DNA from: Leptothrix sp. (in: b-proteobacteria)
GTDB taxonomy: Bacteria > Pseudomonadota > Gammaproteobacteria > Burkholderiales > Burkholderiaceae_C
DNA: 64,000 nt
Assembly (NCBI GenBank): GCA_041083665.1
Contig: JBFPGZ010000013.1
Location: 3,740-67,739, forward strand
Direction: 5' to 3'
The notes below the pieces were generated by a model that was given only the letters and a program-made list of their open reading frames with translations, searched no databases and was not told where the DNA came from. Both the position numbers and the translations under genes were made by a program. The first letter of the stretch is position 1. Every line of letters begins with the position of its first letter. Shown here piece after piece: positions 57,171-57,450 of this stretch.

Positions 57171-57450
57171 CCTGTCCCAACAGGTTGACCATCCTATTGG
57201 GACATGTGGGTCGTCCTGTTCGAACAGGTTGCCCCACCTGTTCGGACAGGTGACCTGCCATGTTGGGACAGGTGACGTCACCTATTCGGACAGGTTGACC
57301 GTCCTGTTGGGACAGGTGACATCACCTGTTGGGACGGATTCGGTGTCAGGCGGGGGCTGAGCGGGTAGCGCGGCCTGAAATCGGGAGCAATCAGTTGGGA
57401 CAGGTGAACTCACCTCTTCGGACAGGTGACATCACCTGTTGGGACAGGTT
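57171..57450. repeat. Array of about 11 imperfect 22-bp direct repeats (consensus CCTGTTGGGACAGGTGACATCA) built from alternating inverted 8-mers ACAGGTGA/TCACCTGT
   Basis: Units start at about 57171, 57192, 57214, 57236, 57261, 57280, 57302 and 57324. After a 55-bp GC-rich gap, more follow at 57392, 57413 and 57435. Each unit contains TCACCTGT-tggg-ACAGGTGA. Adjacent units create ACAGGTGA-ca-TCACCTGT, giving a continuous chain of overlapping palindromes. Confidence 0.8.

Follow-up and report, generated by a model that had tools for sequence, protein, structure and literature searches.

A spacing of ∼22 bp is classical for cooperative arrays of protein-binding sites, among them plasmid iterons, the BvgA dimers at the fha promoter, and tandem pho boxes, and protein-DNA arrays that co-evolve with their partners are known from plasmid iterons, from ParR/parC, and from BvgA, PhoB, or OmpR arrays phased at about two helical turns. 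Among plasmid iterons, inverted copies serve autoregulation. In the ToxI/ToxN system, a tandem-repeat RNA is cut into units, each of which binds and neutralizes the protein encoded downstream. Here, we analyze a 22-bp-period tandem array in a 64,000-nucleotide stretch of Leptothrix sp. DNA (assembly GCA_041083665.1, contig JBFPGZ010000013.1, positions 3,740 to 67,739 of the forward strand; hereafter, the window), where it lies upstream of a gene for a small protein that combines an N-terminal three-helix bundle with an FN3 domain. Arrays of the same period are found at the same position upstream of relatives of this gene, with units of different sequence. We favor, tentatively and at somewhat less than an even chance, the reading that the array is a module-specific, helically phased protein-binding platform, iteron- or operator-like, which would control or serve the FN3-family gene and be tuned by the number of units.

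The array was confirmed at positions 57163 to 57456 of the window, between the tpsA start codon (56834, minus strand) and the FN3-domain gene (57684 to 58331, plus strand). It is made up of 11 degenerate 22-bp units, ten of them direct and one inverted, arranged as two blocks that are in phase; the register that we used for the unit is CCTGTTSGGACAGGTGACnnnn. Tandem Repeats Finder (TRF) reported period 22 at 57180 to 57335 (7.1 copies, 71% matches) and again at 57398 to 57449, as well as period 44 at 57235 to 57335 (86% matches), and the autocorrelation at lag 22 has a z score of 9.5. The left edge is formed by the inverted distal unit (57163 to 57184, minus strand; reverse complement, CCTGTTGGGACAGGTTGAGATG), which is a minus-strand core match with 0 mismatches. 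Block 1 (57193 to 57346, plus strand) contains seven direct units that start at 57193, 57215, 57237, 57259, 57281, 57303, and 57325 and share the conserved core CCTGTTSGGACAGGTG, the distal units being the most degenerate. The three direct units of block 2 (57391 to 57456, plus strand), with starts at 57391, 57413, and 57435, are the best-preserved copies of all. Between the blocks lies a GC-rich, nonrepeat spacer of 44 bp (57347 to 57390), which contains an inverted repeat, TCAGGC...GCCTGA, and is conserved in the related locus L016; because 66 bp (3 × 22) separate the unit starts 57325 and 57391, the blocks are in phase across it. The array ends proximally at GCTGTAAC (57452 to 57459, plus strand), a conserved boundary of invariant alignment columns that is common to L016, L017, and L018 despite their differing repeat units. 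Thus, TRF, core matches, and the unit register all bear out the coordinates and the count of about 11 copies in two blocks given in the original prediction, which had been made from the sequence alone.

The exact 22-mer is present once, and the units are degenerate, with 79 to 83% identity to their consensus. Matches to a 15-mer core with ≤2 mismatches number 13 in the window (0.18 expected), and the 8-mer ACAGGTGA occurs seven times (1.48 expected); all of these lie within the array. The 8-mer had been described as alternating in inverted orientation with 2-bp and 4-bp spacers; exact alternation is found only at 57312 to 57329 and 57422 to 57439. In the information profile of the units, the 16-mer CCTGTTSGGACAGGTG is conserved, with TTSGGACAGGT strongest, and conservation is lowest at the junction that gives rise to the "8-2-8" palindrome. 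The units are imperfect, hairpin-capable palindromes with arms of 5 to 8 bp. Since tandem repetition of a palindromic unit automatically yields interlocking palindromes, the latter are not a separate feature, and the asymmetry of the central TTSGG gives the units a direction. Comparison by eye with known motifs led us to reject LexA CTGT-N8-ACAG, CRP, pho box, and PIP/hrpII box sites, all of which misfit in spacing. The array was also correctly set apart from clustered regularly interspaced short palindromic repeats (CRISPR), because its units are contiguous head to tail with a period of 22 bp and are interrupted solely by the one 44-bp stretch.

To place the array in the context of the gene family, we compared loci of family members with 35 to 91% protein identity to that of the window, which sample seven lineages. 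Eight of nine loci, representing six of the seven lineages, had their top autocorrelation at lag 22 (or at lag 44, with 22 next) in a fixed interval that runs from 550 bp to 101 bp ahead of the start codon (z = 3.6 to 10.1). The arrays of period 22 or 44 that TRF found in 202 kb of these loci are all located 136 to 349 bp upstream of the FN3-family gene; the other arrays listed have other periods and are in other places. The units themselves differ. L016 (91% identity) shares the unit CCTGTTGGGACAGGTG with the window, whereas L017, L018, and L019 (65%) have, at the same position, a two-block 22-bp-period array with a different core, TCCTCATGAGGA, that also ends at GCTGTAAC; in L017 and L018, the two blocks are separated by a comparable nonrepeat gap. 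More distant relatives have the units GACCTTGCTAACAAGG (L021 to L024, ∼45%; in the forms GACCTTGTTAGCAACCTGACCC and GACCTTGCTAACAAGGTGGCAT), TGAGTGTGCTCTCTTCAAGTAT (L029, 41%; 5 copies), AATGGGTTTCTGATGCACAACA (L028, 39%), and ATGTGACCTTGCTTGGTCGGGA (L031, 37%; 6.6 copies). According to TRF, period 44 fits better than period 22 in the window and L024, but not in L031. Across the gene family, therefore, the period and position of the array are conserved and the sequence of its unit is not.

The number of units varies in whole steps, in line with the suggestion that the element is variable in copy number. L016 has a window-like spacer and flanking units but at most two units of block 1, the counterparts of the two proximal units in the window, and two of block 2, where alignment with the window leaves a clean 22-bp gap of exactly one unit. 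The near-identical loci L023, L024, and L022 have 7, 9, and at least 12 units, respectively, and differ in 44-bp steps. The coding sequences of the window and L016 are 90% identical overall and 81% identical at third codon positions; the ∼390 aligned upstream bases contain few mismatches and, by eye, are conserved about as well as the coding sequence. At the contig end of L016 (positions 1 to 44), to the left of the last recognizable unit, TTTTTGTTTCT occurs twice, 22 bp apart and in the register of the array; it has 12/22 identities to the adjoining unit and may be a diverged, AT-rich unit type.

The array had been linked to the tpsA-tpsB operon on its other side. On that account, the LuxR/NarL-type regulator encoded at 33334 to 34011 would control the operon by binding to the array as a platform in the promoter region that tpsA shares with the divergent FN3 gene. 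The regulator is real and indeed an orphan, with an SPFH/Band 7 protein as its neighbor and no adjacent kinase. Well-preserved units also yield a 7-2-7-like inverted repeat, CAGGTGA-CA-TCACCTG, which has the geometry of NarL-family dimers, and BvgA dimers are known to cover 22 bp each at the fha promoter. Conservation within the unit is lowest at the 8-2-8 junction, however, which is intact at about two places. The array begins 330 bp from the tpsA start codon, and tpsA has a separate pair of palindromes (56944 to 56980). The array also stays with the FN3-family gene where the supposed target and regulator are absent: neither tpsAB nor a LuxR-type regulator was found within 6 to 10 kb in any of the related array-bearing loci. 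We therefore regard the proposed link as highly improbable, although the regulator might still bind the array in this one genome.

The neighbors of the related loci include type I restriction-modification systems, toxin-antitoxin (TA) pairs, Cas I-F, transporters, and housekeeping genes; the TA and defense genes around the modules comprise HigA, MNT/HEPN, and HicAB. No conserved downstream partner gene was found among these loci, and tblastx and blastn comparisons of upstream DNA among lineages returned only array-to-array matches, with no other conserved open reading frame (ORF) or DNA. A hidden upstream regulator gene or a conserved noncoding element was therefore rejected. The FN3-family gene alone accompanies the array throughout. 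Furthermore, L018 and L028 come from the same Burkholderiales metagenome-assembled genome (MAG; GCA_016702605.1), which has two paralogous array-plus-gene modules with unrelated 22-bp units. Unrelated arrays within one MAG speak for a partner that is specific to each module rather than for one host factor that recognizes all arrays.

Could DNA structure, rather than a protein, be what the array provides? The original prediction had offered a cruciform-forming switch, and palindromic units could extrude cruciforms or hairpins to form a supercoiling-dependent switch or an insulator at an island boundary. Three array types are consistent with this idea. Palindromy is significant for the block 2 consensus of the window, for L018, and for L024, although not for the block 1 or L016 consensus, and the same three types fold strongly as single-stranded RNA relative to shuffles (z = −7.2 for the window, −8.0 for L024, and −3.3 for L018; the window array folded as DNA gives −6.1). 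The other three of the six types (L031, L029, and L028) show no significant palindrome, and their fold z scores are −2.2, −0.1, and +0.2, two of them (L031, −0.1; L028, +0.2) being no better than shuffles. Because palindromy and strong folding are missing in half of the array types, hairpins or cruciforms cannot be the family-wide mechanism, and we consider a structural switch a very remote prospect. What is constant across the family is direct 22-bp periodicity, not self-complementarity.

Repeats of this kind might also be selfish or neutral, either a minisatellite generated by slippage or a low-copy element similar to repetitive extragenic palindromic (REP) sequences or miniature inverted-repeat transposable elements at the edge of a variable island. 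The unit number is unstable, and the array adjoins variable cargo: L017 and L018, which have the same protein and the listed downstream genes in common, carry different cargo upstream, and their homology stops where the array ends distally. The array is also a frequent site of assembly breaks; many contigs end 100 to 400 bp upstream of the FN3-family gene, as expected if the repeat breaks assemblies. In addition, 22-bp arrays with the same 11-mer core exist elsewhere. A scan with a two-unit pattern (TTSGGACAGGT-N11-TTSGGACAGGT) of 185,579 species genomes, whose representatives do not include the source genome, found two loci, both in one Pseudonocardiaceae MAG with a different 22-bp unit; the same pattern was present at 13 metagenome loci and at no viral locus. 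These loci contain 22-bp arrays that share the core TTSGGACAGGT at GC contents of 0.39 to 0.73. They share no genes among themselves or with the window and, by profile hidden Markov model and tblastn, have no FN3-family homolog, so they were rejected as relatives of the window array. Since the pattern forced both core and spacing, the matches are best explained as ascertainment of unrelated tandem repeats. Intergenic 22-bp tandem repeats GTGTGTCCGCGGGTTCGGACAG of actinobacterial origin (the Pseudonocardiaceae MAG and similar) were noted at L001 5880 to 5975, L002 405 to 480, L003 2290 to 2350, and L007 620 to 700; they occur on at least two contigs of one MAG, a REP-like dispersed behavior, and have nothing but the TTCGGACAGGT core in common with the array of the window.

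Several observations make a neutral origin improbable, although we leave it slightly ahead of the least likely explanations. Independent minisatellites would not be expected to share a 22-bp period and a position next to one gene family in six lineages, the core is conserved more than the rest of the unit, and there are no further copies in 64 kb. The view that the array is not a REP element or a bacterial interspersed mosaic element (BIME) fits the lack of dispersed behavior in the 64 kb and in the pattern scan, with dispersal ruled out within the 64 kb only.

The DNA between the array and the start codon, whose GC content is 10 to 15 points below the locus average, contains further conserved elements. 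A second phased element (57536 to 57590, plus strand) is made up of three AAGC(C)AT motifs that start at 57538, 57559, and 57579, i.e., 21 and 20 bp apart; it separates the array from the likely promoter, and L016 has conserved it (TRF period 20, L016 265 to 328). Downstream of it, a −10-like hexamer, AATAAT (57622 to 57627, plus strand), is invariant in five aligned loci (the window, L016, L017, L018, and L020) within the invariant block TG..AATAATG, and L024 has a similar TAATAAT. The five loci also share ATGCAA and a GGGAG ribosome-binding site, which in the window is at 57672 to 57676 (plus strand), 7 nt before the start codon. We take the conserved AATAAT to be the putative promoter of the FN3-family gene, which would place the array upstream of the promoter. 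There is no recognizable −35 element at this hexamer, and a conserved AATAAT without a −35 element downstream of an array is what a factor-dependent promoter would show. Consensus scans of 56600 to 57900 for sigma-70 promoters or terminators returned nothing and were uninformative. Rfam gave only sub-threshold, miRNA-like noise at a permissive threshold across 56500 to 58000 and, at the gathering threshold, no match in the upstream regions of nine related loci. Outside these regions, an Acido-Lenti-1 small RNA (RF01687) was matched exactly at the gathering score at L031 3502 to 3548 (minus strand), ∼1.6 kb downstream of the family gene.

These elements bear on whether the array acts as DNA or as RNA. 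The repeats could be transcribed and the repeat RNA could partner the FN3-family protein in the manner of type III TA systems such as ToxI/ToxN. The layout, a tandem array followed by a gene for a protein of ∼200 residues, with repeats specific to each module, is that of such systems, and the settings are rich in TA and defense genes (HigA, MNT/HEPN, HicAB, type I restriction-modification, and Cas I-F). Described type III systems have repeats of 31 to 62 nt in 1.9 to 5.6 copies upstream of the toxin gene, and their defining features include a terminator, a promoter, and the toxin fold (PMC3401426). The 44-bp period, which is the better fit in the window and L024, is within this antitoxin repeat range. 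The defining features themselves are not seen: consensus scans of the window, L024, L029, and L031 found neither a terminator-like hairpin on the gene strand (+) between array and gene nor a promoter consensus upstream of the array, and the protein has neither a ToxN/AbiQ-like fold nor a PADLOC match. Moreover, the conserved −10-like element lies between array and gene, the gap of 135 to 432 bp is far above the usual 1 to 50 bp (PMC3401426), and the L031 and L028 array RNAs fold no better than shuffles. We judge an RNA partner to be quite unlikely, though it is the alternative to which we give the most room.

The same region invites comparison with replication origins and centromeres. Tandem 22-bp repeats are the usual format of iterons; here, in-phase direct repeats are followed by the segment of reduced GC content, and the two-block layout recalls parC and tubC, as would befit an iteron-type origin or a parC-like centromere of an integrated plasmid-like element. 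None of the expected partners was found: the neighbors tested include no Rep, ParA/ParM, or ParR-type gene, and none of seven loci has a DnaA box (TTWTNCACA) in the region. The loci lie on contigs of 0.98 and 1.69 Mb, and the protein is without a match in plasmid, phage, and viral-contig collections. Of all the explanations considered, we regard this as the least probable.

The FN3-family gene (57684 to 58331, plus strand) encodes a protein of 215 residues in which the N-terminal three-helix bundle is joined by a linker to the C-terminal FN3 domain. AlphaFold2, run on a 22-sequence alignment, predicted helices at residues 14 to 28, 45 to 64, and 67 to 95, a disordered linker, and the FN3 domain (mean predicted local distance difference test score, 84.7). 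The N-terminal domain has no match in PDB sequences, Pfam, or NCBIfam; fold searches with the protein returned nothing but FN3 domains, PADLOC gave no match, and PHROGs matched solely via the FN3 part. Nor was the protein matched in 72,556 plasmids, 50,697 phages, and a collection of viral contigs, and a plasmid, phage, or viral origin of the gene was rejected on this basis. A word-indexed search with the 215-residue protein found 21 and then 55 clusters, mostly from Burkholderiales MAGs, and an exhaustive profile search with the N-terminal 115 residues found 1,732 representatives at an E value of ≤1e-3; the family thus numbers ∼1,700 clusters at 50% identity. Nearly all representatives are 203 to 217 residues long and thus share the two-domain architecture. 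Exact look-ups gave no record for the window protein or for P0002, its closest relative on a long contig (62 kb, from a Leptothrix MAG). On helix 3, K69, R73, and R77 form an invariant basic stripe, while helices 1 and 2 are the most variable parts of the protein (mean pairwise identities of 0.27 and 0.34 versus 0.44 to 0.47 elsewhere). A basic stripe combined with variable helices would suit a surface that binds nucleic acids with changing specificity, without being evidence that there is one. Two further observations concern relatives of the gene. In L021, a 93-residue ORF downstream (1446 to 1727) is a partial second copy that duplicates the FN3 part of the family gene (LPATDKFWAVLGPKSG...). 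In L024, the family gene (3952 to 4596) has a GC content of 0.57, compared with 0.48 for both the locus and the array, which hints at horizontal acquisition of the gene.

We favor a phased protein-binding platform because the period and position are constant, the sequence is module specific, units change as wholes, a core is conserved, and the array lies upstream of a putative promoter that has no −35 element. In this model, the array is the cis element of a self-contained module that consists of the 22-bp-period array and the three-helix-bundle/FN3 gene. A sequence-specific protein would bind the units side by side, and with one unit per two helical turns, all binding sites would be on one face of the DNA. 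The bound protein might set expression of the downstream gene or, instead, recruit its product. Whole units could be gained or lost through slippage or unequal recombination, which would tune occupancy and leave the phase unchanged. The binder would be the product of the FN3-family gene or another dedicated partner. The FN3-family gene is the preferred source, since no other gene is found with the array every time, and its own product is the most economical candidate; the fold lends this no support, and we consider such self-binding unlikely.

Several points weigh against the phased platform. The binder is a candidate only, and the putative promoter was placed by a conserved hexamer. One lineage, represented by L025, in which the gene lies beside cas1, is without 22-bp periodicity, and the seven lineages examined come from a family of ∼1,700 clusters. 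Finally, the distance from the end of the array to the start codon varies from 135 to 432 bp among the loci, which makes a fixed activator geometry unlikely.

In the window, the array and its gene are part of a region with a distinct composition. To the left of the array are tpsA, which encodes a protein of 7007 residues with ESPR and TPS domains, tpsB (ShlB/POTRA), and the gene for the LuxR/NarL-type response regulator; to the right are the FN3-domain gene, a HigA-like antitoxin gene after an apparently truncated killer gene, and phn genes on the opposite strand. GC content falls from ∼0.68 to 0.50 to 0.60 across positions ∼33000 to 59000, a block that spans the LuxR-type regulator, tpsB, tpsA, the array, the FN3-family gene, and the TA remnant. 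Given this drop, the ∼33- to 59-kb block looks like an island, flanked by the SPFH-domain gene and the phn operon. No integrase gene was seen at the block, and the 64-kb window has no tRNA gene, so that tRNA-linked integration was rejected.

Other features of the window touch on tpsA and the TA remnant. The palindromes at 56944 to 56980 are two 14-bp sequences, TCAGCAATTTGCTG and TCAGCAAATTGCTG(A), 22 bp apart start to start and ∼110 to 145 bp upstream of the tpsA start codon; they appear to be a better candidate operator of tpsA-tpsB than the array, possibly with the LuxR-type regulator as binder. A coding repeat of 405 bp close to the 3′ part of tpsA (36501 to 37694; 2.9 copies, 96% identity) suggests a recent internal duplication. 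A second very large ORF (6669 to 14459, 2596 residues) contains coding repeats of 81, 162, and 417 bp and is followed by a 574-residue ORF (14456 to 16180), with which it may form another two-partner secretion pair. The HigA-like antitoxin (PF21716) is encoded at 58634 to 58951 and preceded by an ORF at 58400 to 58627. This ORF has no Pfam match, and the similarity of its last 57 residues (MRIRTTEFYRDWINALKDRAARARIQV...) to a HigB/HI1419-type killer is confined to the N-terminal half of the latter; the toxin is probably truncated and the antitoxin orphaned.

For the annotation of this locus, the consequence is a correction: the array is unsuitable for inferring how the 21-kb tpsA adhesin operon is regulated. 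The array also accounts for the breaks in metagenome assemblies immediately upstream of FN3-family genes. If the phased platform is real, the 22-bp array would be the cis signature of an uncharacterized protein family of ∼1,700 clusters, whose N-terminal domain has no Pfam model, and would give that family a candidate partner. Retention of period and position over deep divergence, with complete turnover of sequence, would then be a hallmark of co-evolving protein-nucleic acid recognition outside the known Rep, Par, and ToxIN systems. A bolder version, which we think unlikely, is that the three-helix-bundle/FN3 protein polymerizes on its own lineage-specific 22-nt repeats, as DNA or RNA, making an undescribed two-part nucleoprotein module of ∼1,700 clusters, often located in flexible regions rich in defense and TA genes. 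Its logic would be like that of Rep/iteron, ParR/parC, or ToxN/ToxI, with an unrelated protein fold.

Known systems each share some of these features. Plasmid iterons with their Rep proteins (R6K gamma ori, pPS10, and Chlamydia and lactococcal theta plasmids) likewise have direct repeats at ∼22 bp start to start and occasional inverted copies; their repeats, too, are element specific and co-evolve with the adjacent gene, and the DNA next to the array is richer in AT. Unlike iterons, the arrays described here are chromosomal, can number up to 11 to 13 units, more than at most origins, and occur as two unrelated modules in one genome; they have no winged-helix Rep (of the Rep_3, RepA, pi, or TrfA type), no DnaA box, and no plasmid or phage match. 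R1 parC/ParR, pSK41 parC, and pBtoxis tubC/TubR resemble them in having two blocks of element-specific repeats upstream of a regulated gene; a protein filament coats the arrays of those systems. In those systems the period is 11, 20, or 12 bp rather than 22, the protein is of the ribbon-helix-helix or winged-helix type, which ours is not, and a partition NTPase is encoded; no ParM, ParA, or TubZ-type gene is present in the window neighborhood or the related loci.

Among regulator arrays, BvgA at Bordetella fha, PhoB pho boxes, OmpR F1 to F3, and ToxR heptads at ctxAB similarly place contiguous sites, ∼20 to 22 bp apart, on one face of the DNA upstream of a promoter with a poor −35 element, and at ctx, as here, copy number differs between strains. 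Those arrays comprise two to four sites or short heptads, with one motif per genome and a known global or two-component regulator, whereas ours comprise 5 to 13 units, have no regulator gene alongside, and use different motifs in the paralogous modules of a single genome. REP/BIME and the neisserial dRS3/NIME elements are also intergenic, imperfect palindromes of ∼20 bp, found beside a surface protein gene at a recombination-prone boundary. In those families, one sequence recurs at tens to hundreds of loci in each genome; the present array occupies one locus per 64 kb, changes in sequence with the adjacent gene, and is nonpalindromic in half of the lineages. With toxIN, cptIN, and tenpIN, finally, the modules share an array upstream of a gene for a protein of ∼150 to 215 residues, locus-specific repeats, and defense- and TA-rich surroundings, and they differ from them in the 22-nt unit, the 5 to 13 copies, the large gap without an intervening terminator, and the absence of a ToxN-like endoribonuclease. 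Searches of the literature and of family libraries found no description of such a gene-plus-array module. The phased tandem binding array is a known principle; the uncharacterized FN3-family partner and a 22-bp signature that persists through complete sequence turnover appear to be new.

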